The notes beneath the pieces are model-generated. The model searched no databases. It worked only from the letters and a program-made list of their open reading frames with translations, and had not been told where the DNA came from. 64,000 nucleotides of DNA, taken from the NCBI GenBank assembly GCA_001002285.1, contig LCLX01000003.1, forward strand, positions 2,560 through 66,559, written 5' to 3'. Below, piece after piece: positions 3,948-54,612 of the stretch (positions are counted from its first letter, which is position 1; the number at the start of each line of letters is the position of its first letter). The position numbers and the translations under genes are program-made. The DNA is from Microgenomates group bacterium GW2011_GWC1_46_15 (lineage in GTDB: Bacteria; Patescibacteriota; Microgenomatia; UBA1400; UBA12028).

Positions 3948-4117
3948 CATTTACTGCAAAAGCATATGAACTTCTAAGTAATTCTGGCGTTCAGACAATG
4001 ATAGGTATTTATGTTAGCCTCATCATTCTCGCAAAATCGGACGACATTATTGATACATTTTCGCGGTGGAAACATGCGTTAATAAAAAGAAAAGATACGC
4101 GGAAAATTTCATCATAA
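3944..4117 (+). CDS. small hypothetical protein (57 aa), translationally coupled to the previous ORF
   Basis: ATG at 3944 overlaps the stop of 3729..3947 (ATGA). One hydrophobic helix. Below the ORF-track size cutoff. Confidence 0.2.
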   Translation: MTFTAKAYELLSNSGVQTMIGIYVSLIILAKSDDIIDTFSRWKHALIKRKDTRKISS

Positions 4118-4140
4118 AGTGTGGCGGCACAAAAAATAGC

Positions 4141-5511
4141 TTACCCCATCACTAGTTTTTCAAACTTTTCTTGTTCTTCAAATGGGCCGATCATGACAAA
4201 ATAGAGCCGTTTTTCATCAATGAGTTTTTTTGCGATTGCGCGCACGTCAGTCAGCTGAACTGCGCGGATTTTTTCCAACTCTTCTTCAACCGTTTCAGTT
4301 TTCCCCGTCAATAACTGTGTTGCACCATAGTGGCTCGCAACAGTTTTTGTGTCTTCCATATCCAAAATGGTCGAACCGGTCATGTAATCTTTTGCACGCT
4401 GCAACTCAATTTCAGTAATCACACGCGGTCCTTGTGTGTCCAACAAGTGGAAAAATTCTTCACGGACCACACGAATTGCCTCCTCCACCCGTGTCGGATC
4501 AACGCCAGCTGAAGCGCCAAACACGCCGGTGTCGTGATAATAATCGAGATCACTGCGGACGTAGTAACACAACCCGCGTTTTTCGCGGACCTCGGTAAAC
4601 AACCGCGAACTCATGTTGCCGCCAAAAATTGCGGCCAATACTTGCAACGCGTACCGTTGCGGATCGGTGCGCGTAATTCCGGGAACGGCCATAATAAAAT
4701 GCGCCTGATCGGTTTTCTTGTACTCAACTTTTACGCGTTCGCCGGTAAATAATGTTTTCGTGAATGTTTTCAGTGCCCGTTCACCGCCATTTTTCCGATT
4801 ACTCGTATCACTTTTTTTAGAAAACGCGCGCTCAATGTCGTGCACAATACTATCGCCACCCACAATAGTTGCGTCACCAGCAACCGTGAGCACAACGTTG
4901 CCCAATCCATACCACTCTTTCACGTATGCGACAAAATCCTCGCGGCTCAATCCGCGCACCGTTTCTTTTGTTCCAATGATGTCGCGGCCCAGTGGACTGC
5001 CGGCAAATAACACTTGTTCAAAAATATCGCCGATGTGCCGCATGGGCGTGTCGTTGTACATGTTGATTTCTTCAACAATCACGCCTTTTTCGCGTTCCAA
5101 ATCATCTTTACGGAGTGTTGGTGTAAGCAACATGTCCGAAACCACATCAACGGCCAACGGCATGTGCTCGCTCGCGGCTTTTACGTAGTATCCCGTGTAC
5201 TCTTTTGATGTAAACGCGTTGAACTCCGCGCCCACCGCGTCAACCGCCGCCGCTAAATCCTGCGCGGTCGGATATTTTTCCGTTCCTTTAAACACCATGT
5301 GTTCTAAAAAGTGCGAGATGCCACCCCACGCTGGTTTTTCATATCGCGAGCCGGTGTTCACCAATGCCAAAACCGTAACCGACTGCACGCCTTTCATGGG
5401 AATCCGCAAAAGTGTGAGTCCATTTGACAACATGTTTTTGAAATACAGAGAGGATGAGGAGTGTGATGAACCGCGTTTAGAAGTTTTTGCTACCGTTTTT
5501 ACTGCTGCCAT
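4141..5511 (-). CDS. M16 family (pitrilysin/insulinase-like) zinc peptidase
   Basis: 456 aa. Inverted zinc-binding motif HFLEH present near the N-terminus (...GISHFLEHMVFKGT...), followed by a second M16_C-like half. Confidence 0.85.
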   Translation of the reverse strand: MAAVKTVAKTSKRGSSHSSSSLYFKNMLSNGLTLLRIPMKGVQSVTVLALVNTGSRYEKPAWGGISHFLEHMVFKGTEKYPTAQDLAAAVDAVGAEFNAFTSKEYTGYYVKAASEHMPLAVDVVSDMLLTPTLRKDDLEREKGVIVEEINMYNDTPMRHIGDIFEQVLFAGSPLGRDIIGTKETVRGLSREDFVAYVKEWYGLGNVVLTVAGDATIVGGDSIVHDIERAFSKKSDTSNRKNGGERALKTFTKTLFTGERVKVEYKKTDQAHFIMAVPGITRTDPQRYALQVLAAIFGGNMSSRLFTEVREKRGLCYYVRSDLDYYHDTGVFGASAGVDPTRVEEAIRVVREEFFHLLDTQGPRVITEIELQRAKDYMTGSTILDMEDTKTVASHYGATQLLTGKTETVEEELEKIRAVQLTDVRAIAKKLIDEKRLYFVMIGPFEEQEKFEKLVMG

Positions 5512-14161: not shown

Positions 14162-14315
14162 AAAGATCGGGACTTAAAGGAAACTAAAGCCACACAATGA
14201 TGTATCGGCCTTTATGCCAGTTATACATTAAATTTCCACTGGCGCCCTATATGGGTAGATCGGGACTTAGCCAAGAGCCAATTATGCTTACCCAAGTGGT
14301 AAGTCCCGAACTTAG
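14162..14315 (+). repeat. composite palindromic intergenic repeat, copy 1 (part A GATCGGGACTTAAAGGAAACTAA + about 70-nt hairpin part B)
   Basis: Part B is CCCTATATGGGTAGATCGGGACTTAGCCAAGAGCCAATTATGCTTACCCAAGTGGTAAGTCCCGAACTT, containing an inverted TCGGGACTTA/TAAGTCCCGA 10-bp stem. The same two-part element recurs at 22792-22955, 40726-40892 (inverted) and 54613-54775 (inverted). Confidence 0.8.
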
Positions 14316-14334
14316 TTCGTGCTACACTAGTTTT

Positions 14335-15060
14335 ATGTCAGTTTCTGCCCAAGTTCTCAGCGTTATTTCCGCAGGCATTCTTAGTTTTGTCTGGGTGCGC
14401 ACGCCCGCGCTTCATCCGTATTCTCTACAACTTGTAGCCACGCTTGTACTTCTTTATTTTTGGGTCAAGTATGCGGCAAAGAAAAAACTTCACCACATAC
14501 TTCCCAATGCGTTGAGTTTTGAAACAAGTATTTTAGCCGCAGCGCTTTTGCTTGTTATAGGCTACACTGGCGGGACCGCGTCGCTTTTTTTACCGCTCCT
14601 TCACTTTTTGCTTTTTCTTTCACTTTTTACACTCGATGCGGCATCGCTCATTACGCTCGGGCTTACTATTCCATTTTTTTTGTGGTCGGTTGAGGGCGGT
14701 GGACTGACAAGTGGAGGGATGGGTGGACCTTTAGGAAATGGATCGCTTAGTACGCATACCATTGCAACGCTTCTTTCTTTCCCCGCGCTTCTGCCATTAT
14801 TGCTGTTTGCAAAAACGCAATACCAAGAACGGCTCGCGGAAAAACATACATTGCGAGTACGCGGTGATCAAAAAATTGACATGACGATGTTTATCACAAC
14901 ATTTCTAAAACCAAAACTGTATACAATGTTTCAGCTGAGTTCCTATCCCGCAGAAAATAAAGAAAATATTCAAAAACAAATCCGTGTGATTTTGGAACAA
15001 ACAGAGTTGATGATCGGTGAGGTAAAAGATGATGGCGATGAAAAAATTCATGAAAAATAA
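14335..15060 (+). CDS. hypothetical polytopic membrane protein
   Basis: The ORF-track start (14197) lies inside the repeat element. The first in-frame ATG after the repeat is at 14335 (MSVSAQVLS...). About 6 TM helices. No recognisable family. Confidence 0.5.
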   Translation: MSVSAQVLSVISAGILSFVWVRTPALHPYSLQLVATLVLLYFWVKYAAKKKLHHILPNALSFETSILAAALLLVIGYTGGTASLFLPLLHFLLFLSLFTLDAASLITLGLTIPFFLWSVEGGGLTSGGMGGPLGNGSLSTHTIATLLSFPALLPLLLFAKTQYQERLAEKHTLRVRGDQKIDMTMFITTFLKPKLYTMFQLSSYPAENKENIQKQIRVILEQTELMIGEVKDDGDEKIHEK

Positions 15061-15790
15061 AAAATTCGCGACTGTTTTTCCTATAGCCGTAGCGCTTTTT
15101 TTTGGAGCTATGTTTTTAATGATCCCCAAAGCGCATGGATTTATGTCGTCTGCGGATTACATGATTCAGTTTGGCAATATCAACATGACTTCAGGAACTA
15201 AAACTGGTGGCCCATATAAAATAACGGACACGGTTGGGCAAACCGCTCCGGGAAGATATGGAACAACGGGATATTTAGTGCGGGCAGGGTTCCAGTACAT
15301 TTATACAATCGGCACATTTTCGTTTTCACTCTCGAACTACCGCATTGATTTTGGCCTCCTCAGTACGAACACGTTTGCGACCGCGACCACCGGCGTTACA
15401 GTTTCGGCAAAAGGGGCCGGCGGATACATCGTAACTGCATACGAAAATGCGCCACTAACAAAACTTGGGACGGCTGCAACTATTCCAAACACAACGTGTA
15501 ACTCTGGGAGTTGTACATATGGAACGGTCGGCGTGTGGACAGACGCGACAAAAAATGGATTTGGGTACACTCTTTCGGGCAACGATATTCCCGCAGCGTT
15601 TGTGGACACAACATACTTCAAACCGTTTGCAGATTTCTCACAAAATCAGCCAGGCCAAGTTATTATGAGTAACGCGGCCTCGGGGAAAAATAGATACGCG
15701 GTGGTTACGTACAAAATTTCGGTATCGGGCTCACAGGCCGCGGGCGATTATGAAAACCACATTGTATACATTGCAACGCCGGGGTATTAA
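15029..15790 (+). CDS. secreted beta-rich surface protein, paralog A1 (conserved C-terminal QAAGDYENHxVYxAT motif)
   Basis: 253 aa with a signal peptide. Shares GGY[IV]VTA[YH][EQ]N, TYGTxGxW...KGFGY[TS]L and a terminal SQAAGDYENHIVYIATPGY with the 492-aa protein at 16903. Confidence 0.6.
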   Translation: MMAMKKFMKNKKFATVFPIAVALFFGAMFLMIPKAHGFMSSADYMIQFGNINMTSGTKTGGPYKITDTVGQTAPGRYGTTGYLVRAGFQYIYTIGTFSFSLSNYRIDFGLLSTNTFATATTGVTVSAKGAGGYIVTAYENAPLTKLGTAATIPNTTCNSGSCTYGTVGVWTDATKNGFGYTLSGNDIPAAFVDTTYFKPFADFSQNQPGQVIMSNAASGKNRYAVVTYKISVSGSQAAGDYENHIVYIATPGY

Positions 15791-16805
15791 ACGTATGAAA
15801 CATCTACAAAAAATTCTTTGTGCAATAGTTCTCGCACTTTTTTTTGGATTTTTCTCATTCGCAACTCCATCTTTTTCATCCTTCTCTTCAATCGCTCACG
15901 CGCAAACACTGCCGGAAATTTCGCTGTCCATTTCCCCACCACACGCTGAGATACTCCTTCAGCCGGGAAAAAGTATTGTACAGGCGTTCAATATTAAAAA
16001 TACTGGAAGCGCGGATCTCGAAGTAACACCATTCCTCGCAGACTTTACGGTTGATAGTACTGGAACTCCAACCGTTCATATTGAAAAACCTTCAAGTTTT
16101 CTGTTTGCAACACTTCAAAACTTGGACAAAACGCTGGGTGTGCCGTTTGTGCTTTCTGCTGGAAAATCAGATCAACTTGTTTTGCGAATTCACATTCCGG
16201 AAACTTCGCAGGAGCGCGATTATTATCAAACGCTTGTCCTCCAAGCCAAGCCTTCTTCACTCACCATGCTTACTCAGACAACAAACTCGCAGTCGCTCGC
16301 AAACGTTGGTGTGCATATGCTGATTTCTATTTCAAAAACCGGCGCTGACTTGGGTGAACTCACTATCGAAAAACTCATCAAACCTTTTATACTTGATTCA
16401 TTCATGCCATTGCGTCTCCAGATTTTTGCAAAAAATACCGGAAAAACGTACACCAAAGCGCAGGGCGAGGTTACAATCCGCTCACTTATTACCAATAGAA
16501 TAGTTACAGTGTTTCCAATCCTACGGGAGAATGTATTGGCGGGCGGAGTGCGCGAACTTCATGCCGCAATAAAAGATCCCGACGATGAAAAAAGTTCGAT
16601 CGCAGACGTTTTTATATATCATCCACTCTTTTTATTTGGACCATATGAAATCCGTATTGACGTTCACGCGGAAAATCAGCAACCTTCTCCCGTTGTTTTC
16701 CATGTGTGGGCGTTGCCATTTACATTGTTTGCGGTTGGTGGAATGGGATACGCTATCTTGTTGTGGAAGAGAAAACGAGAGAGAAAATTTGAAGAAAATT
16801 TATAG
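15750..16805 (+). CDS. signal peptide + C-terminal TM-anchored surface protein, paralog B1 (DUF916-like fold by inference)
   Basis: 351 aa. N-terminal signal peptide, beta-sandwich-like N-domain (...ISPPHAEILLQPGKSIVQAFNIKNTGSADLEVTPFLADF...). C-terminal hydrophobic helix followed by KRKRERK. Paralog of 18434..19495. Confidence 0.55.
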   Translation: MKTTLYTLQRRGIKRMKHLQKILCAIVLALFFGFFSFATPSFSSFSSIAHAQTLPEISLSISPPHAEILLQPGKSIVQAFNIKNTGSADLEVTPFLADFTVDSTGTPTVHIEKPSSFLFATLQNLDKTLGVPFVLSAGKSDQLVLRIHIPETSQERDYYQTLVLQAKPSSLTMLTQTTNSQSLANVGVHMLISISKTGADLGELTIEKLIKPFILDSFMPLRLQIFAKNTGKTYTKAQGEVTIRSLITNRIVTVFPILRENVLAGGVRELHAAIKDPDDEKSSIADVFIYHPLFLFGPYEIRIDVHAENQQPSPVVFHVWALPFTLFAVGGMGYAILLWKRKRERKFEENL

Positions 16806-16853
16806 TAGTGTATGTACGCTCTCATGGAATGAGAATGTTCTCTAAGATGAGTA

Positions 16854-16883
16854 TTGACATTACGATGGGGGGGGGGTAAAAAT
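16854..16883 (+). promoter_or_regulatory. sigma70-like promoter (TTGACA -35, TAAAAT-like -10) whose 17-nt spacer contains a G10 homopolymer (16867-16876)
   Basis: TTGACA at 16854-16859, G10 at 16867-16876, TAAAAAT at 16877-16883, then ATG of gene 16903 about 20 nt downstream. Confidence 0.45.
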
Positions 16884-16902
16884 TGATAGTAGAGTTATAT
16901 AC

Positions 16903-18381
16903 ATGAATATACGTATTGCATCGCTGCCGAAGCTTCTTGTTGTTGGTCTTTTTTCTGTTGTGGTTTTTGTCTTTTCACCTAGTATGTTTCGGAACGAAGC
17001 GGCAAACCTCACGAGTGTTTCTGACATGCTTTCCAGTTCCCGCCTTTCGTTCTATGGTCTCATGTGGACTGGCAACACGGTTGGCGCAACGCTTATTACG
17101 ATCAACACGACCACTGCCCCATCAACAAGCTCCAGCCAACTCGCATCGCCTTCTGCAAGCACGGCGATAAAAATTGGTACACATCATAACTATACGCTTG
17201 ATAAAATCATGCAGAATGAAAACGAGGCGTTATTCAGTGTCACCTCTGGCCAAACACTGCAAACCGGTGACCAAACCGCAGGCGTTCCAATCATCGCCAC
17301 ACAGTCTGCATCACATACGGTGAAGTTTACAACAGCAACAGCTGTACCAAACGGCTCAATCCGCGTTTTGGTTCAGGCGACAACAAATGTGGGCTCGTCT
17401 AATGATGGCATTCCCGATGGAGACGGTTTTGACTTTAAAACAACGGCACCAACCGTGTCCTGTCCAACGGATGTAAGTTCAACAATGGACTTTGTCGCCG
17501 GCACTGCAAGCGCGGCAGCCGTAACAATCAACTCCGTGAAGTACCACGTGTTTGAGTGCCGATACTCGGGCGCGGGAAACGCTGCACAAAGCTTCCAGTC
17601 TAATCCCATTGTTGTTACTTCACTCATCAACCCCGCTCCAAAAAGCGGACACGCGGTGGGAACAGCAGATGCATACAAAGTAATTGTACAAAACATGGAC
17701 TCAACCTACACGATGGTTGATCAAACAACGGCACAAATCGGTGTCATTGAGTCGGTCCGTGTAAGCGCAACGGTTGCTCCGCAAATTACGTTTAAAATCG
17801 CGGGAATTCCCTCCGGAGCATTGGGAAACAACGCGTGCGGATCAAACACATCCGTAACAACAACGGCAACTACCGTTCCGTTTGGCGAAGTCGCAATCAG
17901 TTCGTTTAGTTATGCCGCCCAATCGCTTGAGGTTTCAACAAACGCCGTGGGCGGATATGTAGTTACGGCCCATCAAAATGACAATCTTGGAAAGGGTGGT
18001 AAAGCATGCGCGGACGGATCGTTCCCGGTAGACTGCATTGTAGACACCACGGGAAACGGCGCAAACATCACGTACGGAACAAAGGGGCGGTGGGACAGCA
18101 CAACATACAAAGGCTTTGGGTATTCGTTAAAGAAAATTACCAGTACCGGAACCGCGGCGTTCGAATACGGCGACACCGATGGAAACTGTGTTGGTGGAAC
18201 GTTCTGCGCAAAGCAGTTTGCCGATCTCGAAAACTCAGAACCCTCGCAAACCATTTTTTCCTCCTCAACCGTTGCGGACTCGGAGAATATTGACGTGTGT
18301 TACAAAATCGTGATCAGCAATACACAAGCTGCCGGAGATTACGAAAACCACGTTGTGTACACGGCAACCGCAACATTTTAG
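16903..18381 (+). CDS. secreted surface protein, paralog A2 (492 aa, same C-terminal AAGDYENHVVYTATATF motif)
   Basis: Signal peptide. Ser/Thr-rich N-terminal linker. Shares GGYVVTAHQN, ITYGTKGRWDSTTYKGFGYSL and the terminal motif with A1. Confidence 0.6.
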   Translation: MNIRIASLPKLLVVGLFSVVVFVFSPSMFRNEAANLTSVSDMLSSSRLSFYGLMWTGNTVGATLITINTTTAPSTSSSQLASPSASTAIKIGTHHNYTLDKIMQNENEALFSVTSGQTLQTGDQTAGVPIIATQSASHTVKFTTATAVPNGSIRVLVQATTNVGSSNDGIPDGDGFDFKTTAPTVSCPTDVSSTMDFVAGTASAAAVTINSVKYHVFECRYSGAGNAAQSFQSNPIVVTSLINPAPKSGHAVGTADAYKVIVQNMDSTYTMVDQTTAQIGVIESVRVSATVAPQITFKIAGIPSGALGNNACGSNTSVTTTATTVPFGEVAISSFSYAAQSLEVSTNAVGGYVVTAHQNDNLGKGGKACADGSFPVDCIVDTTGNGANITYGTKGRWDSTTYKGFGYSLKKITSTGTAAFEYGDTDGNCVGGTFCAKQFADLENSEPSQTIFSSSTVADSENIDVCYKIVISNTQAAGDYENHVVYTATATF

Positions 18382-18433
18382 GAACAACACTATATTGTAT
18401 TAAGATAAAGATAAGAAAATAGAAGAAAGTGTT

Positions 18434-19495
18434 ATGAAAAAAATCCTGCCCATCATCCTCCCGCTTTTGCTTGTCGTCTTTTTGATTGGATCGCGCCATT
18501 CATTTTCATTCGCCGCGGATAATACTCAACCGTCGCCAGAGATAAATCTGGCCGATTTTAACAGTGTTGTACTCATGGCTATTCCCCCACGCACCGAGAA
18601 TCTACACGCAAAACCTGGCGAAACAATCCAAACAACCGTGCGGCTCCGCAATGTTTCCCAGCAAACACAGCGCATCGTTACAGAAACTACCGATTACGTG
18701 ATCGGCGCAGATGGCAAAACGCCCGTGCCAATTACCCAACAAGAAGCCGCTCCGCTCCGGTGGAGTTTGGCATCGTGGATGACTGTTTCCCCCACACAAA
18801 CAACGCTCGCACCCAATCAAATCGGCCAGTTTGATGTTGTGATTCAAGTACCAAAAAACGCACTGCCCGGCGGGCATTACGCGGTCATTCTGCACACCGT
18901 TGCCAACGGACAAAACGGTGGGAAAAACGGACAACCCATCCAAACTCAGGGCACTTCCGCAGTCAGTCCCAAAGTTGGTACGCTTGTGTATGTAACAGTT
19001 GAAGGAGATATCCACGAAGAAGCGTTTATCCGTAGTTTCACCGCTCCAAGCTGGGTTGAGTTTGGACCGGTTCCTTTTACATACAAAGTGGAGAATCTCT
19101 CTGATGTTCATATCACACCACAAGCGTCAATCGTGGTAAAAAATCTATTTGGCGGAGTTGTAGACACGATTGCTGTTGAGCAACTCAACATTTTTCCGTA
19201 CTCCACGCGCGAGTTCACCACAACGTTGGATAAAATATGGGGGTTCGGACCGTACCGTGCATTCTTGACTGTTCCATATGGCACCAGTGGGAAAATGGTC
19301 CGCGCTTCACTCATGTTCTGGATGATTCCATATAAGCTGATTCTTGCCGCACTTGTTGTTCTGGCAGCTCTGCTTGCAATTGGAATCGCAGTACGCCGGC
19401 ACATTGAACACCGCAATAACCTCAGCACAAAACGCATTGAAGTGCTCGAAGAACGTATTAAGGAACTCGAAAACGAAAAACTCAGTGAAAAATAG
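18434..19495 (+). CDS. signal peptide + C-terminal TM-anchored surface protein, paralog B2
   Basis: 353 aa. Same architecture as B1: N-terminal beta-sandwich-like segment (...IPPRTENLHAKPGETIQTTVRLRNVSQQTQRIV...), C-terminal TM helix then a charged coiled tail. Confidence 0.55.
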   Translation: MKKILPIILPLLLVVFLIGSRHSFSFAADNTQPSPEINLADFNSVVLMAIPPRTENLHAKPGETIQTTVRLRNVSQQTQRIVTETTDYVIGADGKTPVPITQQEAAPLRWSLASWMTVSPTQTTLAPNQIGQFDVVIQVPKNALPGGHYAVILHTVANGQNGGKNGQPIQTQGTSAVSPKVGTLVYVTVEGDIHEEAFIRSFTAPSWVEFGPVPFTYKVENLSDVHITPQASIVVKNLFGGVVDTIAVEQLNIFPYSTREFTTTLDKIWGFGPYRAFLTVPYGTSGKMVRASLMFWMIPYKLILAALVVLAALLAIGIAVRRHIEHRNNLSTKRIEVLEERIKELENEKLSEK

Positions 19496-19522
19496 TTTGC
19501 GCGGCATCCTCCACAACCGTGT

Positions 19523-21601
19523 ATGATAAAACGTATGGCTCCTGCTCGATTCAGCCAGAGGGTTGTACTCGGAACAATTGTTGTGATTGTTTTGTTATTG
19601 CGCATGTGCGTATCGGGCGTGCGCGCCGGCATCAGTGATACCGGCGTTGCCAGCGACGAAACACTTTCTACAAACCCAAAAGCGCGGCAAACAAGCATCA
19701 CCGCTTCGGTCCGCGACCGCATTAATCCCACTACTCCCATTCTTGTTTCTCCGGAAAATAACAGTACAGTGGCGCAAAACATGTTTGGTTTTGTGTGGAA
19801 AGAAAGTACCGACGACTACGGCATCGCAAAGTATCAGTTGTATCTTGATGGCGTGTTACAGTTTGACAACATCAGCACAAGTAATCAGACCACCACACAG
19901 TTTACGCTTATCGTTTCTTCCGGCGTTCTCACGCTCACACCAAAAACAGCGCTCACTGATGGCGACCACACGTGGAAAATTACCGCGTTTGATGCGAATG
20001 GAAACACCGCCGACTCAGCAACGTGGAACTTTACGATTGATACCGTTGCGCCAGTTTTGATTGTGACTTCGATTGATGGACAAACGGTTTCTATTTCTGC
20101 CCAAGACACCTCAACTATTCCATCATCTACTATTATGTTGAGCCACAACGAACCCGAGGTGTTCGGAACGTCTGAAGCCAACGCGTCTATTACTCTTAGC
20201 ATTCGTTCTGGCTCAACGGTGATCGCAACGCTAGATACAACGGCAGATGGTGCTGGCGCGTGGTTCTTCACGCTTCCCGTTTTGCCAAGGGACACGCTCC
20301 TTTTACTTCAGGTTATTGCCAGAGATGCTGTGGGCAACATGAGCATGATTGATGGGATTCCTATGAAACTCCTCACTCCTTTTATTACACTCCCTGGACC
20401 ACTTCCGCCCATTCCGTTCATTCCTCCACAAGAAGCGGCTAAAGAAATTACACAACAGATTATTACATCGCTCTTTCCCCCTGCTACAGCAAAAGTTGTT
20501 ACCGAGGTGTTAGACACGATTACTCCCCTTGCAAACTCATTCCTTGGCCTTTTGCTCCCATTGGTACGGGTGTTGATTGGCCTTTCTTTGCTTGGCATTC
20601 CGTTTTTCACGCTTACGCCCGGGATTGTTGGTAGTGTTTTGCACGCCACGTATCTTTTGTTCCCATTTCTCCCATGGAGAAAAGGCGGCATTGTGTATGA
20701 CGAGGAAACACGCAAGGGAGTGCCGTTTGCTTTAGTGACGATATACTCGGTTGATCTTACTCAAGGAAAGCAGAATAGCGCTTCCCCCGCGCAATCTCAA
20801 AGCGTTATTGGTGTTGATCCTGATTTCCCTGGAAAACTGCGCCAATTCAAACAGGTTGTGAGCGATGGCGATGGGGTTTATCCGGAGGTTTTGTTGCCTA
20901 AAGGCGTCTATGTGCTCGCAGTGAGTCATGCTGATTACGCGTACGCACGCTCACTTGAGAAAGTCTCTGGCCTCAGTGGTAGCCCCGACATTAAAATTCG
21001 AGAGAAAGAAGCCGATGATACGGTTTGGAGCGGCGAACGCATTATTGTTTCTCAAGACAAAACTCTTCTGCGCGCGATGCTTCCTATGGTTCATATACAA
21101 AAGGCTCAAACTGTTGTTGGTGTTCTTGAACCTCCAAAACCAGGCATGTTGGGCTTGCGGTACACCATTGCCAAGCTTCCAAACTCGGTTGTTTTTACGT
21201 TTACCATCCTTATGATATTTCCACTTCTCCTTTCGCCCACTGTCTGGAATGCGCTCGTGATGGCAGTGTATCTTGTGGTAAGTAGCCGACGGTTTGCCCG
21301 AGGACACCGAACACCAAACCTGGTTGGAACCGTACTGGAAGAGAACAAGGCTTCTCCCGCAGCATTTGCCCTCGTTTCTGTTGTACAGAACACTCCAGCA
21401 GCGACTAGACCATCCAGGATGGGGACTGTTGTTGAGATTTGCCACACCGATGCGTTCGGAACATTCCAAACCCGTGTACGGCCGGGGTCGTATATGGTAA
21501 CAGCAATTGGTGCCCATGGGACAAACTCCGAAGTTATCGCCACCGAAGTTGTGCGGTCTGAGGGACGTGCGGTGGCTCTTGTCCTCCACCCATCTATGTA
21601 A
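19523..21601 (+). CDS. large membrane/surface protein (signal peptide, extracellular beta domains, internal 3-4 TM block, C-terminal domains)
   Basis: 692 aa. N-terminal signal/TM. The middle hydrophobic cluster (aa about 300-390) lies between predicted extracellular domains. The segment ...DGDGVYPEVLLPKGVYVLAVSHADY... resembles a carboxypeptidase-regulatory-like beta-sandwich. Last gene of the surface cluster. Confidence 0.5.
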   Translation: MIKRMAPARFSQRVVLGTIVVIVLLLRMCVSGVRAGISDTGVASDETLSTNPKARQTSITASVRDRINPTTPILVSPENNSTVAQNMFGFVWKESTDDYGIAKYQLYLDGVLQFDNISTSNQTTTQFTLIVSSGVLTLTPKTALTDGDHTWKITAFDANGNTADSATWNFTIDTVAPVLIVTSIDGQTVSISAQDTSTIPSSTIMLSHNEPEVFGTSEANASITLSIRSGSTVIATLDTTADGAGAWFFTLPVLPRDTLLLLQVIARDAVGNMSMIDGIPMKLLTPFITLPGPLPPIPFIPPQEAAKEITQQIITSLFPPATAKVVTEVLDTITPLANSFLGLLLPLVRVLIGLSLLGIPFFTLTPGIVGSVLHATYLLFPFLPWRKGGIVYDEETRKGVPFALVTIYSVDLTQGKQNSASPAQSQSVIGVDPDFPGKLRQFKQVVSDGDGVYPEVLLPKGVYVLAVSHADYAYARSLEKVSGLSGSPDIKIREKEADDTVWSGERIIVSQDKTLLRAMLPMVHIQKAQTVVGVLEPPKPGMLGLRYTIAKLPNSVVFTFTILMIFPLLLSPTVWNALVMAVYLVVSSRRFARGHRTPNLVGTVLEENKASPAAFALVSVVQNTPAATRPSRMGTVVEICHTDAFGTFQTRVRPGSYMVTAIGAHGTNSEVIATEVVRSEGRAVALVLHPSM

Positions 21602-22791: not shown

Positions 22792-22955
22792 AAAGATCGG
22801 GACTTAAAGGAAACTAAGGGTTGGGATTGATATACAAATCCCTTTTATACATTTTGGCAAGTTATACACACGATTTAGCGAACCCCCTATATGGGTAGAT
22901 CGGGACTTAGCCAAGAGCCGATTATGCTTACTCAAGTGACGAGTCCCGAACTTGT
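22792..22955 (+). repeat. composite palindromic intergenic repeat, copy 2
   Basis: GATCGGGACTTAAAGGAAACTAAGG ... CCCTATATGGGTAGATCGGGACTTAGCCAAGAGCCGATTATGCTTACTCAAGTGACGAGTCCCGAACTT. About 90% identical to copy 1 in parts A and B. Directly abuts the start codon of the minus-strand gene at 22788. Confidence 0.8.
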
Positions 22956-23390: not shown

Positions 23391-26300
23391 ATGAGTCCTG
23401 CCGACATCAACTACTCACGACCTCAATTTTCCGTTCCGGAGCACGTTATCGCGCGTATTGAAGCGGTGCTTAAACAGTTTGCAGAATTTTTATTTGCTCA
23501 ACAGCTTTCAAAAAAATCAGTGACAAATTATCTTTCAGATGTTCGCGTGTTTTTAGAACACCGTTTGGCAAACAATCAGGCGTTTCAGGAACGCGCGGCA
23601 GAAAAAGACCTCAAGCAGTGGCTTTCTTCCCTTGAGCAGGATATTACAGCCTACAGGGCAGAACTCCTCGAGGAAGCCACCCCTCTCTCGACAATTAATC
23701 GGTACATGGCCTCATTCCGACAATTTGGCGCATTCCTTACTGCTGTCCACCAGATCAGCGCCTTCGGTCATTCTTCTGGCGAGTATCTTAAAAACATTTC
23801 ATTTTCCCCCGAGTCACACCTACATTCCTTGAGTGACCGACTGCTTCAGCAGTTCAAGTTGGCGCTCACCCATCGTGGTTGCTCAGACTCTACAATCAAG
23901 AATTATTGTGCTGATATGCACCAATACATGCAATGGCTAGGAGAAAAACCGGTTTTCCCAGATCAGATCAAACGGGGTGTTGCGGAATATTTGGGATTTT
24001 TGCGGAAAAAAGGTGCGTCGCGCGCAACAAAAGCACGTGCTCTCACCAGTTTAAAGCAGTTTTATCGATGGGCAAACGAGTCCCAGTACATCAAAAAGAA
24101 TCCTTTTGCATCAAAAATGGCAGAGGTTGGGACTTTCGTTAAAACTGCGTTTACTCCACTTGCCTTTTTTGAGAGGTTCCGAAAAGCGCCTCAGCAAACA
24201 CCTCAAGAAAAAGTTTCAGAAGAATCCTCTCGAAGACTCTCTCCAATCACCCAAGCCTACGACCGGTACACCCGTTGGCCGGTGAGTTCATATCTTCATC
24301 TGGCCATCTTAATCCTTTTTGTTACGTTGCTTGGTGTGTTCGGCTATCAACAGCTCTTTTTAAACGCCGAGAAAAAACTTGCGTTCCCCACCGCCCTCAC
24401 CCGCCCCAACCGCACTCTGTCTTTCCAGGGTCGTTTAACAGACAGCACAGGCCAAACACCAATCACAACTGCAACAAACTTTACATTCAAGCTTTTTGAC
24501 GCACTTACCGTTGGAAATCAGCTCTGGAACTCGGGAACCTGTAGCATCACGCCGGATCAGGACGGCGTATTTTCGACATTGCTCGGAAGCAGCTGTGGTG
24601 CGGAAATCGACAGTGGCGTGTTCAGCGAAAACCCCAACGTATACCTCGAGGTTACGGTGGTCGCGGAGACACTCACCCCAAGGCAACAAATCGCGACGGT
24701 TGGCTACGCATTAAATGCAGAAACACTTCAAGGCTACCCTGCCTCTGCCAGCGCAGTAGAAAACACGGTGCTCATCATGAACAACTCTGGTCAAGTGCTC
24801 TTGGGGAACGCTTCACCTGTGCTCCGTTCAAACTCCGGCACGTTTACAGTCCAGGGCAACGCGCTTACGCTCTCCACAAACACGGGAACGGCTGGCAACA
24901 TTTCGATTGCGCCCGATGGAGTGGGCCAGCTCAATCTCCTCGGTGGAACCACAACGCAGGATTTTATCAGTGTAACGAACGCAAACCTCACAACGGGAAA
25001 ACTGATAAACGGCACGGTCGGAAATAACAATACTGGATACAAATTTTTATCATTTACCGGGGGGTCTGTCCCATCTGAAAAGTTCTATGTGGGGGCACTT
25101 GGAAACGTGTATGCAGGCAACTCAATTTTTGCTCCGGTGGCTACAATCAGTGCAACAAATACCAGCGCTACACCGCTCATAATCAACGGAACTGGAGGAC
25201 AAATTTTCTCAATTGCGAATAGTGGAAACATGACTGGAGCAGGAACGCTTACAGGACTTACGGGATTAACATCGAGCGGCACAATCACATTCTCGGGGTT
25301 AAACACAGCGGGCGCAGTAGTGTACACGAACGGCTCGGGCGTACTGGGAGATACAGCACAAGGTGTGAGTGGGTACGTTCTCACCTCTGGTGGAGCGGGC
25401 ACGCCAACATGGCAAGATCCAGCGACACTTACCGGGGCAAACTATTGGCAGTTGAACAGCCAAGTGTTGGCACCAGGAAATACAACACTTGATCTTGCAG
25501 TTGGCGGAAACTCAACAGCGGCCGCACTGTTCCGCGTGTCCGGCACGCCAACAACTTCAGGCAATGGCGCGGTGTTGTCGTCTACCACACTCACAACCGG
25601 AAACCTCCTCAGTCTTTCATCAACCGCAACATCACTCACTTCCGGTAAGTTACTTTCACTCGACTGGTCGCCGGGAAGCGCGATCACAGCAACCGGTGAC
25701 TTGTTTAACATCAACATCGGCTCAAATGGAACCGTGGGAAATTTGCTGAACATCACGGATAACGGGTCGTCTCTTTTTTCCGTTTCAGAAACCGCGGTGA
25801 CGAGTAATTTACCAACGTCGTTTACCTCATCGGGTGATGTTTTAATCGCGTATGATCTGATTTTTACTAATCCAACCGCATCGTACATAAAATCTTCGGC
25901 ACCACTGTATTTGCAGGCTGGTGAAATGTTTAACTCCAGCGATCTCACGCTCCGCACGTTCAACAAAGGCAACGTGATTATAGACTCCGAGGTACTTGTT
26001 GCAAACTACGCCGCCACTGTTGCATCCCAGTTGGTTGTTGGAACAACAACTGCACCCGCGAACATTGGCGGGCTGTATCTCACAAACGCCACAACATATG
26101 GAAAAGCGTTGGCAATATTGAACCAAACCGAGTCGCAGGATATTTTTACCGCGTCGGCATCTTCGGTAGCAAAGTTCACAATTGCAAACAACGGCAACCT
26201 CACAGCAACAGGGACAATCACCGGACTGACCGGCATTACTTCAAGCGGAACGATTACGTTTAGCGGGCTTAACACCGCGGGCGCAGTGGCATACACAAAC

Positions 26301-29300
26301 GGCTCGGGTGTGCTGGGGGTGACGGCACAGGGCGTAAGCGGATATTTGCTGACCTCTGCCGGAGCAAGCACACCAACATGGACTGATCCTGTAACGGTTG
26401 GTACCAACTACTGGCAGTTAAACAACAAGGTGTTGGCACCGGGCAACACGACGTATGATTTGGCAATTGGCGGAAACTCGACGGCGGCGGCAAAGTTCCA
26501 GGTGTTTGGCGAAAGTGGGAATGCGACATCCACCGGTACGCTCACGTTTAACGGGGCAGCATTGGCTAACAATGTCATTGCGGCACGGCGCAATGTTGGA
26601 CTGCAGATTGGCGACACGTATACCGGAAACATTATTATTGATTCAAACAATTGGTTGAAACTCAATACAACAAACAACCAAGCGATTACCACAGGTACGG
26701 GTCTTATCACGTTGGCCGGCAATGTAGACGCAATCAACGGGTTGGACGTGACCACCGCGAACTTAACCGTGGGCGGTGCAAACTTTAGCGTTGCACCAGG
26801 AACCGGAAACATTACGACTGCCGGCGACCTGGCGCTCAACGGCGGCGATCTCACCTCTATCGCGACCACGTTTAACTTTGACATCGGCAACACTGGAGTG
26901 CTGAACTTCCGCGATGGGACAAACACGCTGTTTTCCATTACCGACGGTGGAACACAAGGCAACGCCAGTTCTTCGGGAAACCTTACTCTTGGCGGACAGT
27001 TCCAACTGGGACGATTCGCAACCGCACCTACGGGACTTGGAACAGGCGCGCTCTACTACGACACCACATCCAGTAACATCTTCTTTTACAACGGAAGTAC
27101 TTGGACAGCGGTAGGTTCGGGAAGTGGCGCAAGCTGGTGGAATCAGGCTACCGGCGCCCTGTATCCACTCAACTCCACCGTTGATATGTTGATTGGCGGA
27201 CAGGCAACAACAAGCGCAAAGTTTGCGTTCATCAACGTTAACAGTGGAAATCCAACGGCAAGTATTTCCGGGAACCTCGCGATTGCCGCTCCCGCAGGGG
27301 CAGATCCGGCAACAACATACGATGTTTTAAACGGCGGGACATATAACCTTCGCACATCCGTTGGTGGAGACTTGGGATTAACATCCAGATTGTTTATTAC
27401 AAACGGCGGAAATGTCGGAATCGGGACTGTCAATCCAACGTCATTTAAACTTCAAGTGGCTGGCGATACCGGTCCAAATGCGGATGCATCGTATGATCTT
27501 GGTTCAACTGCGCTCCAGTGGAAAAATATCTATCTCTCTGGTTCATTATGTTTCGACATGGCGGACTGCGCGACAAGTTGGGCAACCGTTGGAACAAACT
27601 ATTGGCAGTTGGACAATCTTGTACTTTCACCGGGGAATAGTACGCTCGATATCGCGGTGGGCGGGAGTGCGACAAGTTCGGCAAAGTTCCAGGTGTTTGG
27701 GGTTAGTGGAAACGCAACAACAACAGGAACGCTTACGTTTAATGGTGCAACGCTCGCCAATAATGTGATCGCGGCACGACGCAATGTGGGATTACAAATT
27801 GGGGGAGGAACAGAAACAGGAGACATTCTTCTTGACTCGAACACATTCCTCCGGTTAAACACAATCAATAACCAAGCGATCACCACGGGAACCGGGCAGA
27901 TGACCCTCGCCGGCAATGTGGACGCAATCAACGGGTTGGACGTGACCACCGCGAACTTAACCGTAGGCGGCGCAAACTTCAGTGTTGCACCGGCAACCGG
28001 CAACATTATTACTGCTGGTGATCTTGCACTCAACGGCGGCGATCTCACCTCTATCGCGACCACGTTTAATTTTGATATTGGGAATACCGGGGTGCTCAAC
28101 TTCCGCGATGGGACAAATACGCTTTTTGCGATCAACGATTACGGCACGCAAGGGTACGCAACATCGTCTGGTGACCTCGGCCTTGGCGGCCAGTTTCAAC
28201 TTGGGCGATTCTTTACAAACCCCACCACGATCGGCAAAGGAAGCCTTGTATACAACACCGCAACCGACTCTGTGTATTACTCTGATGGTTCAACATGGAA
28301 CCAATTTGCGAGTTACGCGGCCGCAACGGTGTGGACCGATGGTGGAACATACCTCTACCCAACAAACCGTGAGTCCGCGCGTATCTATGATGCTGGCGGC
28401 ACCGATTACATTGACATCGCACACGACGGCACAAATGTAGTTATTACAACCGCAAATACCACAAAAATCACGATTGACGCTGCGGTAGATCTGGCAAGTA
28501 CACTCAATGTTGGCGGCAACACGATTACATCTCCGGGAGATCTTTCGCTCAATGCAAGCGGAACAAAAGTCATTGTGTCGCCGGACTTACAGGTGAACGG
28601 TGGTGATATTCTCGGTGCCAGTGGTGAAACACGCATCACGCTTGTGGATGCGCTCAATCTCACAAACTTTAGCGGGAGCGTAGACATTAACGGAAGCTAC
28701 GCGGGTAACGACGGCTTTTTGACCGCCAACCGCACCGCAACGATCAGTTCGCTTATTGCAACCGACACCCCCCTTACGCTCCGCGACAACAACGCGATGA
28801 ATCTGCTCACCGTTGCAAACAGCGGGCTTATTACCGTGCGCACCGCAACGATTAGTTCACAGGCGGTGAATAGTCTGGATACGGTGGCATTCACGCTGAA
28901 TGCTGCGAACTCGCTCACAACCCAGGGAGCAAAACTTCTCTCTGTTCAAAACGCGACCATTGAGAAGTTCTATGTGGACAAAGACGGAAACATCTACGCG
29001 GCCGGAACAATTTTGGCGGGCAACGGCATGGGCATGCTCATGCAGAATAAAAGCGGTGGCACAGTGGCACAAAAAGCGATTGTGATCGTGGACACGTCAA
29101 ACAACTCCGCGTTCACGACTACCACAACGCCGTACAGCAAAGGGATGTACGGCATTATTACCGGCGTTGGGCTTGGAACAATAAACGATGCAAATAGTGA
29201 TGGAAACTGTGACGCCAATGATATCTGTATGGTGGCCGTGGGCGGCGAGGTGAATGTAACAATCAAAAATACGACAACGGTTGCCAAAGGCGACTATGTG

Positions 29301-32300
29301 TACACGAGCGACACCGCGGGGTCTGCGGTTACGTCCGCAAAATTATTTGACGGCATGCTGGGCGTGGTCACGAACACTTCTACCTCCGGCTCCGGCTACG
29401 TCAAGTTCATCTTTAAACCACAAACGCAGGTTACGGCCGCGGCCAGTATTGACAAGGGCAGCAAGTACAACGAGTACAAGCTCTATGCCGACGACTACAC
29501 CGGTGTGGGCGAAGGCACCAGTCCCAACGACAACCTCAATACCAAAGGCATGTACTTTGACAATCTGCTGGACACCACCAAAACGGACAGCGCCAACACC
29601 ACGGTTTCTGCTCCCACGCAAGTGAGTGCCACCACCGGCAATCCCACCCCCGCCGCCCCATTCCGCGCCGGCCTCATCGGCGGCCAAACCATGTCCGCGG
29701 CTACCACCGACAACGCCGGGAACACGTATCTCGGAAGCTCCACCGTCAACAAGACCGTGTACTACGACCGCACGCGCGACTCCTCCGCCCAAGTCCAAGT
29801 CGAACTCGGCATCGATCCCAACTGGTACAACGGCGTCACCCTGGCCGTCGCCACCACCAGCGCGTCATTCTCACAAAACTCCACGATCTGGACACCCAAC
29901 CCCAACCTCTCTAGCACCTACAACGGCTCGCTTCTCCAGGCGAGCGGAACGTACGCGAGCAACGCCAAAACTATCTACGTCACCATCAAGTCTCCCACCA
30001 CGTTTGATTGGACAAACTATAACGGAAATTCAGCTACGGGAGTAACCGTCACCCCAGGGACTAGTCAGTCCCTGGCTGGAACGGGCGTCTCGGTCAAATT
30101 TACGGATGCCAAATACAACACCGGAGATGTCTTCAAAATCGCCTCCTGGTTCGTGGAACCCTCCGGCTCAACCAGAGGCACCAAACAGCAGTTCCCCGAA
30201 CGAGCGATCATCGTAGCCAGCAATACAAATGTTGACATTATCGATGCAGACACGCAGAAACTTTGGATGGATTTTAGTAGCGGCGGGACATGGCTGACGT
30301 CAAATAATTTACTCGCCGCATCTGGCTCTAACGTCGTTTCATCTGTTTCTGTGTTGAACGGAAAAATGCATGCAGGATTAAACGCGAATAACCAGAGATT
30401 GGTAAAAATCGATTTTTCCACTGATAGCGGTGGATCATATCAGACTACAGGATGGCGTGATTACCTGGGAAATATAGCCGAGCGTAACGGTGGAATGGGA
30501 GTAAGCGGATTAAATGGAACTGTTAGTATAGTAAATAACAACGTCAACGACGTAGCGGCCAACGTCATCCCCAACGCTCCCACCCAAACCACGACCGTCA
30601 GCGGCTGGGGATATTTTAGCTTGAGTTCTGCCAGCGAAACCGTCAATCTGCCCTATAAATTCAACACTAATCCGAACATCGTCATCACCTCCGCCGGTCA
30701 CTCCGGCACCACCACGCCGGTCAATCTGGCCAGCTGTACCACCGCCAGCGCCAAAACTGTCGTCACCGATAACACCACGACAACCAGTTTTACCGCCCGC
30801 GAAAGCGCTTTGGACGCGACCAACTATCAGTGCTATTCCTGGACCGCCACCGGCCAGGTCAGCCCGAGACAATTTGTCGGTGCCGCCACCGACGCAGGAG
30901 TGACCGTCGTCAACGAAACCGACGCCACGGCCTACTCCTATTCCGATGCCACCAATGACGCCTATCAAAATGTAGCCCTTACGTCCAAAGGTACGCTCTA
31001 CGGCCTGAACTCGACGGAAAATCAGCTGGAAAAATGGACTTCCATACCCGCCGATACTGCCGCCAGAACGAATGGCACGCCGGACAACGTCTGGGCAAAT
31101 GCCGGCAACGACTCCTTCACCAAGCTTCTCATCCACGCGGATGGCACAAACGGCGCAACCACGTTTACTGACAGTTCGCCGAATGCCCGCACGCTGACAA
31201 CAAACGCAAACGCACAAATATCTACTGCTCAAAAGAAATTCGGTCCCTCTTCCATACTTTTAGACGGCACCGGCGATTACGTATCCGCCGCCGACAGCGA
31301 AGACTGGAATATTGGCAATGGAGATTTCACTATTGATCTTTGGGTTAACTTTTCAGTTTTACAAAATACTATGTTCGTCGAACAAACAACGGACGTAAAT
31401 AACTATCTTCAGCTTTACTGGACTACGTCAAATATCATCTACATGGCCATAAGAAATGCAGGAGCAGACAACATTAGCTTCAACGGAAGCTGGACACCGT
31501 CAACAGGCACATGGTACCACGTTGCGTTTGTCCGATATGGTACTCGGGCGAACATCTACATTAATGGGATATCCGTCGCCACCAAAACCAACATTAGTGC
31601 CGGAGCGGCAAACTACACCTCTGCGTTGGCCGTCGGCTGCTCTCCGTTCAACGGTTGTGGATATGATCTTAATGGCTACATGGATGAATTCCGTTTTACC
31701 AAAGGGCATGCCCGCTGGACCGATAACTTTACCGTCCCCACGAACCCGTACGCGAAAAATGTTGCGATTGCCCCGCTCCCGCCAACCATCCAATCTTCTC
31801 CCAGCAATCTTTCTGTAACCGAAGGAACCTCTGCTGTAGACGGAACCAGCGATACGCTGTACATCGGAACCAATCAGGGGGTCGCTGTCATTCAGGATAA
31901 ATCCACCGTCAGCAGCCGCAACGATAACGGCGACGAACAAAGCGGCTCCGCCAAATACTACACCAAAGACTATGTTTCTGAAGAACTTATGGGTAACGTC
32001 GTCGGCATGTGGCCGCTCACTTCCGGTTACGGGTCGGGGCTGTCCGACGCATCATCAAATCAAAGCGGAAGCGCGTTATTGAACGGGACCACCGCACCTA
32101 CGTACACTGCCTCCGGCGTCCGCGGACAGGCTGCCACGCTGGGCGCCTCTGCCGCAACGGCAACAACGAGCGCAGGACTCGTAAACCAAAACATCAACAC
32201 CATCAAAACCGTTTCCGCCTGGATTTACCCCACCACGCTCACCACTACCAACGGCACGCGGGAGATGGCGGTCTCCGCCGACGCCAACTCCGCCTCGGTT

Positions 32301-35300
32301 GTTTCCTGGGGCATCGGCACCAAAGGCGACGGCACCAACGCCAACCTCACCTGCTTCGCTGGCAACACCGGCCCGACCGCGACAGACTTGGGCACCGGCA
32401 TCCCGGCCGTGGTCAACACCTGGTATCACGTCGTTTTGACCTCCGATGGGTCAAGCGCGCTCAAGTGTTTTGTCAATGGGACACTTTATAACTCAACGAC
32501 TCTTTCCGGCACAGCCCAGACCCCCACCCGTTTCCAAATCGGCGCCACCCAGGCCACGACGGCGTTTAATGCGCTACGGGGCCGCGTGGACGAGGTGATG
32601 GTCACCGCGACACAACTTTCCGCTTCCCAAGTTAAGCGTATCTACGAGGTCGGCTACCGGGCGCTCCAGTCCCACGCGACCACCCTCGGCGGCGGAGGCG
32701 CGGATGCCAACCAGCAGTTGGGCTACATTTCGACAGGTACTAATACAGTTGGCGCGGTTGCTCCGGATTACAATAACCAGTTCATGTACGTGGGCCTCAA
32801 CTCGACGACGCTGGGCGGGCTGTCTAAGATTGACTTAAATAGTGATACGAATATCAAAACATACAATTCTTCTGCCAACGTCCCCACCGGCGGGCCGCTC
32901 CTTATTGACGAGGACACCACGTCCCTGGCCGTCGGTTATACGTTGGAAGCGGTCGGCTCGGCGGCCTCCGGCGTCAAGACCATGGGGGTGGACAATAACG
33001 CCACGGCCACGTCCGGCAACTTCATCAGCAAAACCTACACCACCAGCGAGTCCTTCAGCCAGGCCTATATCTGGTCGCAATATGTGACGGACTCCTCCGA
33101 TGCGTCCAATACGGTCACCGTGTGGGCTTCCAACGACGCTGGATCAAACTATTACCAATGCAGTAACACCAATACCAACACTGGCCAGTCGCCCACCGAG
33201 TACGAGTACTTCTGCCAATTCAATACGCCCGGCTCGTCGCTCAAACTCAAGTACGTGTTCGCCCGCGGCTCCACCAAAACCAACACCTACCTCACCCGCT
33301 ACGGCGTGGCCTGGATCGGCAGCGACGTCGTGGGCGGCGCCCCCGGCGGGAATGGCCTGTACACGAACAATGGAACCGCGGTCGCCAACGGCAGTTACCT
33401 GGAAGTCGCGCATAACCAAAACACAAGTGATCTTTTGACCGAAGGCTGGATTTACGACGGAGCCAAGTGGATCGAGATAGATGACCAAGCCAAGACCGAC
33501 CACAACACCCAGGATCCTACTCTCCTCTCCTGGTACAAGATGGAGGAAGCCTCCGGGGACTTGGACAACGCCCAAGGCACGGCTGCCCGGGACTTGATTG
33601 ACTTGAACGGCCCCACCTACCAGGCCGCCGGCCGCGTCAACAAAGCCATTACCCTGGACGGCACCAACGACTACTTCTGCACCGGCTCGGGCACCACCTG
33701 CGCCTCACCGTCAAACTTTACTACAGACACGAATCGTACGCTCAATACCAATCTTATTTCGTACTGGAAACTTGATGAAACTTCCGGCAGTCGCACGGAT
33801 TCGGTCGGAAGTAATACGCTCACTGACAACAACACCGTCACCAGCAATCCCGGAAAAGTCGGCAACGCCGGGCAGTTCATCGCAGCCAACACTGAGTATT
33901 TGAGCATCACAGACAATGCGGCTTTGAGTACGGGGGATATTGATTTCACTTTTTCAGCATGGGTGTATATGGATTCGCTTTCTACAGACACGCAAGTTCT
34001 TGGCAAGTGGTCTGCATCAGCAGGACAGTACGAGTATCTTTTGGAGCGCGGCAGTGCAAACAAATTCCGGTTTTATGTAAGCAGTGATGGCTCTACCTAT
34101 ACTTCCGTTCAAGCTGCTACATTTGGCGCAATGTCAGCAAATACGTGGTATTTTGTGGTTGCCTATCATGATAGCGTCAACAATACCATCGGCATTAGTG
34201 TCAATAATGGCGCATTTGATACCGTTGCCCACACAACAGGCGTAAGAGATGGTACGGCACAGTTTGACATTGGTGCGTTGGCTGCGGGTTCATTTCCATT
34301 CAACGGTCGCATTGACGAAGTTGGTTTTTGGAAAAAAGTGCTTTCCACCCAAGAAATAACTGATCTATATAACTCCGGCAACGGGAATAGATTCCAAGGC
34401 ATGAACTTTATCGCTTCCGACTCCTTCACCCTGGGCGGCTGGTTCAAGCACGCCACCATCGCCACCAATCCGGATTACATGGTGGCAAAGACGGATGGTG
34501 GAACAGCAGATGACACAAATACAAAACTTCTTCTCCACGCAGATGGTGCAGATACCAGTACTACTTTTACCGATGATTCCTCGTCCCCTCACACCATGAC
34601 CGCCGTCGGCAACGCCCAAATAGATACCGCCCAAAGCAAATTCGGCGGAGCGAGTGGATTATTTGATGGAACCGGAGACTATGTTACAAGCCCAGATCAT
34701 GCGGATTGGGATTTTGCGTCAGGGGATTTTACGATTGATTTCCGGATAAGGTTTAACGTTGTTAATACGGCATATCTTGTTACCCATGGGGCAAGTATGG
34801 CGGGAGGGGATGGGTGGTTTGTTAGATATAACGCGAATAATCTTGAGTTTGCGTATAACAGCACAACGATAACAAAGGCTTGGACGCCTTCAAGCGCTAC
34901 GTGGTACCACGTTGCTGTTGTACGAAGCGGAACAAATTTGTATATGTTCATTGACGGTACGCAAATTGGAACAACAGGATCAATTTCAGGTACTATTACA
35001 GATAATGCAAATCTCTTAGTAGTTGGCGAGCGAGATTCGGGTCCCGGTGCTCCCTTAAATGGCTGGTTAGATGAAGTTCGTATTAGTAAGGGGAGCGCCC
35101 GTTGGACAGCAAACTTCACTTCGCCAACATTATCCTATGGAACCAGTGGCCCCGGCTACAAACTCCTCATGGAATCCGATGGTGATCTGACATTTGGCAT
35201 TGACGATGACAGCATAAGCTTCCCCGAAGACTCTGCCACCTCGACCGTGGCCACGTATGACGACAATGCCTGGCACCATGTGGCCGCGGTCAAGAATGGG

Positions 35301-54533: not shown

Positions 54534-54612
54534 ATCGAATAATCCCCTTTCATAAGAATAGGGGGATTGTACCAGATGTAGGAAGAGATGACAATGCTGG
54601 AACTGATGAAGA

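Follow-up and report, generated by a model that had tools for sequence, protein, structure and literature searches.

Slipped-strand promoter switches are textbook features of host-adapted pathogens (Neisseria, Haemophilus, Treponema and Mycoplasma). A first-pass annotation of the DNA analyzed here, a stretch of 64,000 bases referred to below as the window, placed a candidate switch of this kind in an organism that public records describe as an uncultured groundwater bacterium of the Microgenomates ("Pacebacteria", Patescibacteria). The candidate is a run of ten G residues (G10) just upstream of A2, a gene for a conserved protein. We therefore asked whether this run lies in a genuine promoter, whether comparable runs recur at the same place in relatives and whether their length varies. 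Overall, after comparing the locus with its orthologs, we regard the site as a probable promoter-spacer contingency tract of the porA/fetA/tp0126 type.

The predicted A2 promoter and its gene cluster

The letters and coordinates of TTGACA, TTACGAT, G10 and TAAAAAT upstream of A2 are exactly as originally described. The site and the genes that frame it are listed below in window coordinates.

16854..16859, + strand: -35 hexamer TTGACA, a perfect consensus, 43 nt to the ATG (same distance in the sister lineage)
16860..16876, + strand: promoter spacer, TTACGAT (16860-16866) followed by G10; 17 nt to TAAAAA, 18 nt to AAAAAT
16867..16876, + strand: G10 homopolymer, a putative slippage-prone tract; analogous tracts occur at the A2 promoter of loci L076, L174, L077/L131, L083 and L171
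16877..16883, + strand: -10 region TAAAAAT, read as TAAAAA at 17 nt or AAAAAT at 18 nt
16884..16902, + strand: short leader with no clear Shine-Dalgarno sequence; a transcription start at about 16889-16891 and a 5′ UTR of about 12-14 nt are predicted from the -10 position
16903..18381, + strand: A2, 492 aa, protein conserved in Microgenomates; N-terminal hydrophobic helix, then Ig-like beta-sandwich domains
15029..15790, + strand: A1, 253 aa; paralogous to the C-terminal domain of A2 over its own last ~150 aa; its start overlaps the preceding gene
14197..21601, + strand: syntenic six-gene cluster of secreted/unknown proteins (287, 253, 351, 492, 353 and 692 aa)

One mark of a promoter-spacer tract is a homopolymer, at least about 8 nt long, that separates the two promoter hexamers, and G10 provides it here; TAAAAAT ends 19 nt before the A2 ATG at 16903. 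No other G/C run in the 64,000 bases reaches 7, and the next longest are two G6 and two C6 runs. From base composition, about 0.1 runs of ten G or C would be expected by chance in 64 kb, and shorter G/C runs are depleted in the window. Four runs of eight T were also found, at 14674-14681, 15096-15103, 15838-15845 and 51047-51054. The first three lie inside genes 1-3 of the A2 cluster (2.6 kb); Phe-rich membrane segments may be their simple cause, and no frameshift variants were seen at these cluster runs among the assemblies.

In a consensus scan of 14-24 kb, the G10 site was the top promoter-like match (10/12, read as TTGACA-18-AAAAAT). The same interval contained 13 promoter-like sites against 14 expected, which is not above chance, and the scan is no proof by itself. 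As a -10 element, the region is weak or ambiguous: TAAAAA has no final T, and AAAAAT has no first T. The scan read an 18-nt spacer because TAAAAA, at 17 nt, is without the conserved final T. The 17-nt spacer originally claimed is thus correct for the TAAAAA reading but shares its place with a second reading of 18 nt. Of the 35 TTGACA sites in the whole window, 11 lie between genes, several of them with good -10 boxes.

We collected 160 further A2 loci, placing start codons by tblastn without composition filters, and obtained 128 distinct upstream regions. An exact TTGACA lies within 150 nt upstream of 56 of the 128 distinct orthologs, compared with 3 of 128 coding controls of the same size. 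The best -35/-10 pairs have spacers of about 16-18 nt, mostly 17 or 18, and their -10 hexamers mostly follow nAnnnT (e.g., TAAAGT, TACATT and CATAAT) and usually end 6-20 nt before the ATG. Because TTGACA and a -10-like box near the ATG recur across the family, A2 genes appear to have their own sigma-70-type promoter, and the stretch at 16854-16883 is very likely the local version of it, judging from these sequence comparisons. The consensus-like promoter of the first-pass annotation is in this way borne out as a predicted sigma-70-type promoter. The promoter presumably fires. No terminator is listed between the upstream operon and A2 (16805-16903), so read-through from that operon could mask or soften any change in its output. 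As a separate observation, a mere 6-12 nt separate the end of the predicted -10 hexamer from the ATG in many of the 128 orthologs (L012-L184), which suggests that A2-family mRNAs in Microgenomates may be leaderless or near-leaderless.

The identical A2 protein is encoded in 10 independent public assemblies, including GCA_001002295.1, GCA_003524785.1, JGI 3300025015 and ANAN16 scaffolds, and at least 642 homologs of 470-520 aa, with many invariant residues, were found across Microgenomates. In the AlphaFold model of A2 (mean pLDDT 83), an N-terminal helix at residues 10-28 is followed by all-beta domains. Pfam returned no family match on A2, and fold searches gave weak, generic matches to Ig, FN3, cohesin, pilin, adhesin and MSCRAMM-like folds. 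Across the six proteins of the cluster, the sole clear Pfam assignment was Big_13 on the 692-aa protein; sub-threshold hints were Peptidase_M73 on the 351-aa protein and WxLIP_PGBD on the 353-aa protein. The description of A2 as a secreted surface protein agrees with its hydrophobic N-terminal helix and Ig-like domains, but the fold matches are too generic and weak to sharpen it. A secreted or cell-surface location is plausible from the model.

A2 is the fourth gene of the cluster and the sole one with a gap of 97 nt ahead of it. It had been noted that no comparable homopolymer precedes A1, and this is true. However, because the A1 start overlaps the preceding gene, A1 has no intergenic promoter region in which such a tract could lie. 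The two proteins are 37% identical over 167 aa, confined to the C-terminal part. The suggestion that A1 and A2 are differentially switchable paralogs is accordingly weak, as A1 is an internal operon gene that has one domain in common with A2.

The gene order is LeuRS (-), the six-gene cluster (+), a PaaX-like regulator (-) and a gene for a giant protein of 5377 aa, and this order is kept in relatives whose A2 is ~70% identical. Several features of the neighborhood were recorded in passing. In one assembly, GCA_003525295.1 (L004), ~200 nt are missing where the 3′ end of the 353-aa gene adjoins the Big_13 gene (window ~19303-19504), and the encoded products have 334 and 665 aa; the cause is a genuine deletion in a variant or a collapsed assembly. 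Modules resembling toxin-antitoxin systems, namely AbiEii or a Pol-beta nucleotidyltransferase with an NTase_sub_bind or HepT-like partner, adjoin A2 orthologs in L185-L194 (1-1366), L205 (778-1450) and L198/L210 (about 4050-4437), and the A2 flanks appear to be an insertion hot-spot. The 5377-aa protein (23391-39524) carries Laminin_G_3 and DUF2341 in public annotation, shares repeated segments with a 743-aa protein at 338-2569 and has its last ~95 aa in common with the C-terminus of a 337-aa protein (41411-42424).

The window also holds a repeated element of ~69 nt in three copies, at 14245-14313 (+), 22885-22953 (+) and about 54611-54679 (-). The copies have a core identity of 93% or more, and each lies in a 5′ intergenic region, oriented with its gene. 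The genes behind them are the first gene of the A2 cluster, the giant protein gene and the gene for a four-domain S1 protein (rpsA-like, 53271-54533). Within the element, an inverted repeat reads CGGGACT(TA)...(TA)AGTCCCG, and AGTTATA is conserved as a block ~25 nt upstream; the element has no Rfam match and a fold z-score of about -1.9. A role as a shared 5′ leader or operator is possible.

Homopolymers at the A2 promoter in relatives

The closest relatives form a sister lineage in which A2 is 93% identical and the DNA of the locus 91% identical, with 50 gaps. Its promoter reads TTGACA-TTGAGT-G9-ATACGCT, in which the flanks of the tract are changed and the distance from TTGACA to the ATG is 43 nt, as in the window. 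With this distance and a G tract found amid changed flanks, the tract has survived the divergence of its surroundings, at another length. Relatives with ~70% identical A2 keep TTGACA and have no tract.

Farther away, homopolymers recur at the A2 promoter in differing bases and positions. L076 has a G9 tract in the spacer (TTGACA-AAAAGAT-G9-TAAAAC), and L174 has G8 directly after the -35 box (TTGACA-G8-AGGAACATG-AAATAT), while its relative L175 has no tract (TTGACT-16-AAATAT). In L171, L172 and L205, of which L171 and L205 represent the Collierbacteria ortholog, the spacer contains A13 (TTGACA-TTC-A13-C-TAAAGT). Another arrangement places a C tract directly against the -35 box of TTG(T/C)AT-17-TACACT, with C8 in L077 and L129, C9 in L131 and C6 in L056 and L124; L083 similarly reads C9-TTGACT-17-TATTGT. 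For the C-tract lineages we also considered a -35 box farther upstream, which would bring the tract into the spacer; this was a loose fit for L077 and L083 and failed for L056, and we retained the arrangement with the tract against the -35 box. Altogether, at least five lineages bear G/C runs in the spacer or abutting the -35 box and one further lineage bears A13 in the spacer, whereas most A2 orthologs are without any tract.

Over-representation against background, a second mark of such tracts, was found as well. On non-redundant loci, seven G/C runs of 8 or more fall in 12.8 kb (the 100 nt upstream of A2 orthologs), compared with six in the other 830 kb. Five of these six are coding, three of them in locus L147, and the other intergenic DNA of the 128 loci (44 kb) contains one. 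With the window and its sister lineage left out of the p values against ascertainment bias, four independent lineages remain, and the binomial p is ~1e-5 when all sequence serves as background and ~0.01 when other intergenic DNA does, the latter being based on small numbers. For A/T runs of 11 or more, the single case in the intergenic DNA of these loci is at an A2 promoter. Comparative support for selection on mutability at the A2 promoter is unusually good. The three runs in L147, a distant relative, are C8 runs in coding sequences of the cluster (at 2085, 4278 and 6085). One of them is inside the A2 ortholog, where it encodes D-P-P-Q, and they could be frameshift-type contingency tracts.

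The first-pass annotation had held that uniform support for a single tract length across many samples would speak against phase variation. Such uniformity was in part observed, at the level of consensus assemblies, which hide minority tract lengths: all 11 copies of the window lineage (the window and 10 assemblies) read G10, and all eight assemblies of the sister lineage, with four A2 alleles, read G9. Two sub-strains of the window lineage, separated over 7.5 kb by 11 SNPs without a gap, both have G10. This constancy is unlike the isolate-to-isolate scatter that is typical of classical contingency loci.

One-base differences were found in other lineages. Over 7,491 nt, L077 and L131 share 99.9% identity, with C8 versus C9 as the sole indel. 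Nine of the 10 assemblies that encode the identical protein P0126 have C8 and one has C9, the latter (L193) at a low coverage of 3.6, and contigs with the P0127 allele have C9 or C8. The P0139 assemblies have G8 in nine cases and G7 in one. Some of these variant lengths come from low-coverage contigs such as L193, in which homopolymer error is possible. The proposal of a phase-variable tract thus draws support from the recurrence of homopolymers in independent lineages and from one-base differences in two of them, but it is not matched by variation in the window lineage itself.

Larger changes occur in the G8 lineage. L210 and L211 have an A2 at least 90% identical to that of L195, and within the 100 nt ahead of the ortholog at 1501 their DNA equals that of L195 through TTGACA. 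Beyond this point, L195 reads G8-AGGAACATG-AAATAT and L210/L211 read AACCTATTAAAACATTG-GATCAT with no tract, and the spacer, -10 box and leader are unrelated. Identity through TTGACA followed by a different core indicates fast turnover of the promoter core, which, from the alignment, seems to have been exchanged as a cassette between these strains. A scan of metagenome_contigs for TTGACATTACGAT-N(3-22)-TAAAAATTGATAG gave no match; this result carries no weight, since the JGI contig with the exact sequence (L006) was also unmatched.

Slippage, a fixed element or chance

With moderate confidence, we propose that G10 is a slippage-prone homopolymer in the spacer of A2's dedicated sigma-70-type promoter and that it tunes A2 transcription. 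Replication slippage would add one G to the tract or remove one. Each such change would alter the distance and the rotational phasing between TTGACA and TAAAAAT, and the altered spacing would change the A2 transcript output from this promoter. It had been assumed that a change of one G would move the spacing away from the optimum. However, spacers of 17 and 18 nt are both usual in the A2 family, so G9 and G10 are both probably expressing states, and tracts below G9 or above G10 are probably weak. Loss or gain of a G may thus tune rather than shut off the promoter, and the tract is more likely a rheostat than an on/off switch. We infer that tract length changes within the window population, that it affects A2 expression and that this is adaptive, for instance through variation of a surface protein used for host attachment or as a phage receptor.

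The most serious competitor is a static promoter element, in which a tract of fixed length tunes promoter strength, DNA shape or the binding of a regulator, and slippage is incidental and selected against. Constant length in each lineage (G10 in 11 copies and G9 in 8) and the retention of the tract across the split of the window and sister lineages are what such an element would produce, and a candidate binder is at hand in the PaaX-like regulator, whose gene keeps its place next to the cluster in every relative examined. However, what recurs is the homopolymer as such, in differing bases, strands and positions, which is a poor fit to a specific binding site. Near-identical strains differ by one base in their tracts, and most orthologs, including those with ~70% identity, work without a tract. 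Therefore, we consider a static element unlikely, though not negligible.

The tract might also be a neutral accident, a chance expansion in tolerant non-coding DNA with no effect on A2 expression. Homopolymers are better tolerated in intergenic than in coding DNA, most orthologs are tract-free, and tracts come and go among close relatives. Tolerance of intergenic DNA would nevertheless have to explain why G/C runs of 8 or more number seven in the 12.8 kb upstream of A2 and a single one in the 44 kb of other intergenic DNA. Moreover, the tracts always lie within or against the hexamers, where a spacing-dependent promoter makes length non-neutral, and the tract of the window and its sister persisted while the flanks diverged. 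Neutrality thus appears improbable.

Finally, a sequencing or assembly artifact, or a tract that belongs to a terminator, a riboswitch or a coding sequence, is scarcely credible: homopolymers are error-prone in sequencing and the region folds slightly better than shuffled sequence (z = -1.97), but G10 is repeated in 10 independent assemblies from differing samples, assemblers and archives, 16500-17200 has no Rfam match except one chance match (E = 0.15), the interval 16805-16903 has no terminator-like site, and the upstream ORF stops at 16805 with no in-frame start near the tract. A known cis-regulatory RNA or intrinsic terminator was likewise rejected as a candidate, with no match to a curated RNA family, no terminator-like site and no unusual fold predicted. 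So was a ribosome-binding or coding feature of an alternative start, as the sole nearby start, TTG at 16884, meets a stop after 7 codons.

Of these readings, a slippage-prone tract in a spacing-sensitive promoter is the best supported. A bolder proposal, which we advance tentatively as a real possibility short of a favored one, is that A2 is a major host-contact or phage-receptor surface protein whose promoter has repeatedly and independently gained hypermutable homopolymers (G in the spacer, C at the -35 box and A13 in the spacer). In the literature searched, we found no paper linking phase variation with Patescibacteria or the Candidate Phyla Radiation. Most likely, the site adds a putative member to a familiar class of switch, in a phylum for which that literature has no earlier report. 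If the bolder proposal is true, the Candidate Phyla Radiation would have its first described simple-sequence contingency locus, and ultra-small free-living or episymbiotic groundwater bacteria would use pathogen-style stochastic expression switching. If the tract varies, the A2 cluster would be an environment-facing structure under fluctuating selection, for instance from phage, host cell attachment or grazing. For these organisms, which cannot be cultured and whose surface biology is hardly charted, the convergent homopolymers at one promoter in several Microgenomates lineages provide a concrete hypothesis within reach of existing metagenomic reads.

Comparison with known promoter tracts

The arrangements seen at A2 promoters can be compared with those of known systems. 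In Mycoplasma hyorhinis, a bacterium with a reduced genome, a poly-A run lies in the promoter spacer of the vlp surface lipoprotein genes. It is comparable to the A13 of the relative represented by L171/L205, although the base differs from the G10 of the window and the gene family is another one. The C6-C9 tracts that abut the -35 box in L077/L131/L056 and L083 resemble the poly-C tracts of Neisseria meningitidis opc and Bordetella fim, which lie at or upstream of the -35 box; that of opc encompasses it (PMC7864442). The opc/fim arrangement is unlike that of the window, whose tract sits inside the spacer.

The window is closer to porA (poly-G) and fetA (poly-C) of Neisseria and to tp0126 (poly-G) of Treponema pallidum, whose tracts separate the -35 box from the -10 box and whose expression depends on a spacer near 17 nt (PMC5320596, PMC7864442). 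In N. meningitidis porA and Neisseria fetA/frpB, a G/C tract of ~9-14 nt occupies the promoter spacer of a surface-protein gene and by its length sets the spacing and hence a graded transcription (PMC5320596, PMC7864442). A2, with its putative surface protein, resembles them in the position of the tract. However, the porA and fetA/frpB tracts demonstrably differ in length from isolate to isolate and inside cultures, with an effect on expression, whereas the length is constant in the assemblies of the window lineage. Moreover, A2 is unrelated to porins or TonB receptors, and its host is an uncultured environmental Patescibacterium, in contrast to the host-adapted Neisseria.

Another parallel in lifestyle and layout is T. 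pallidum tp0126, which encodes an OmpW-like protein in an unculturable bacterium with a small genome and has a poly-G tract in the spacer, with the best transcription at 17 nt (PMC7864442). The T. pallidum system has been proven by 5′-RACE, fragment analysis and GFP reporters, whereas the A2 tract is known from its sequence, and the gene families differ. At tprL of T. pallidum, the majority length of ~9 G is stable, and minority lengths are detectable only by fragment-length analysis (PMC7864442). By this precedent, a constant consensus length such as the G10 of the window lineage is compatible with variation of the tract.
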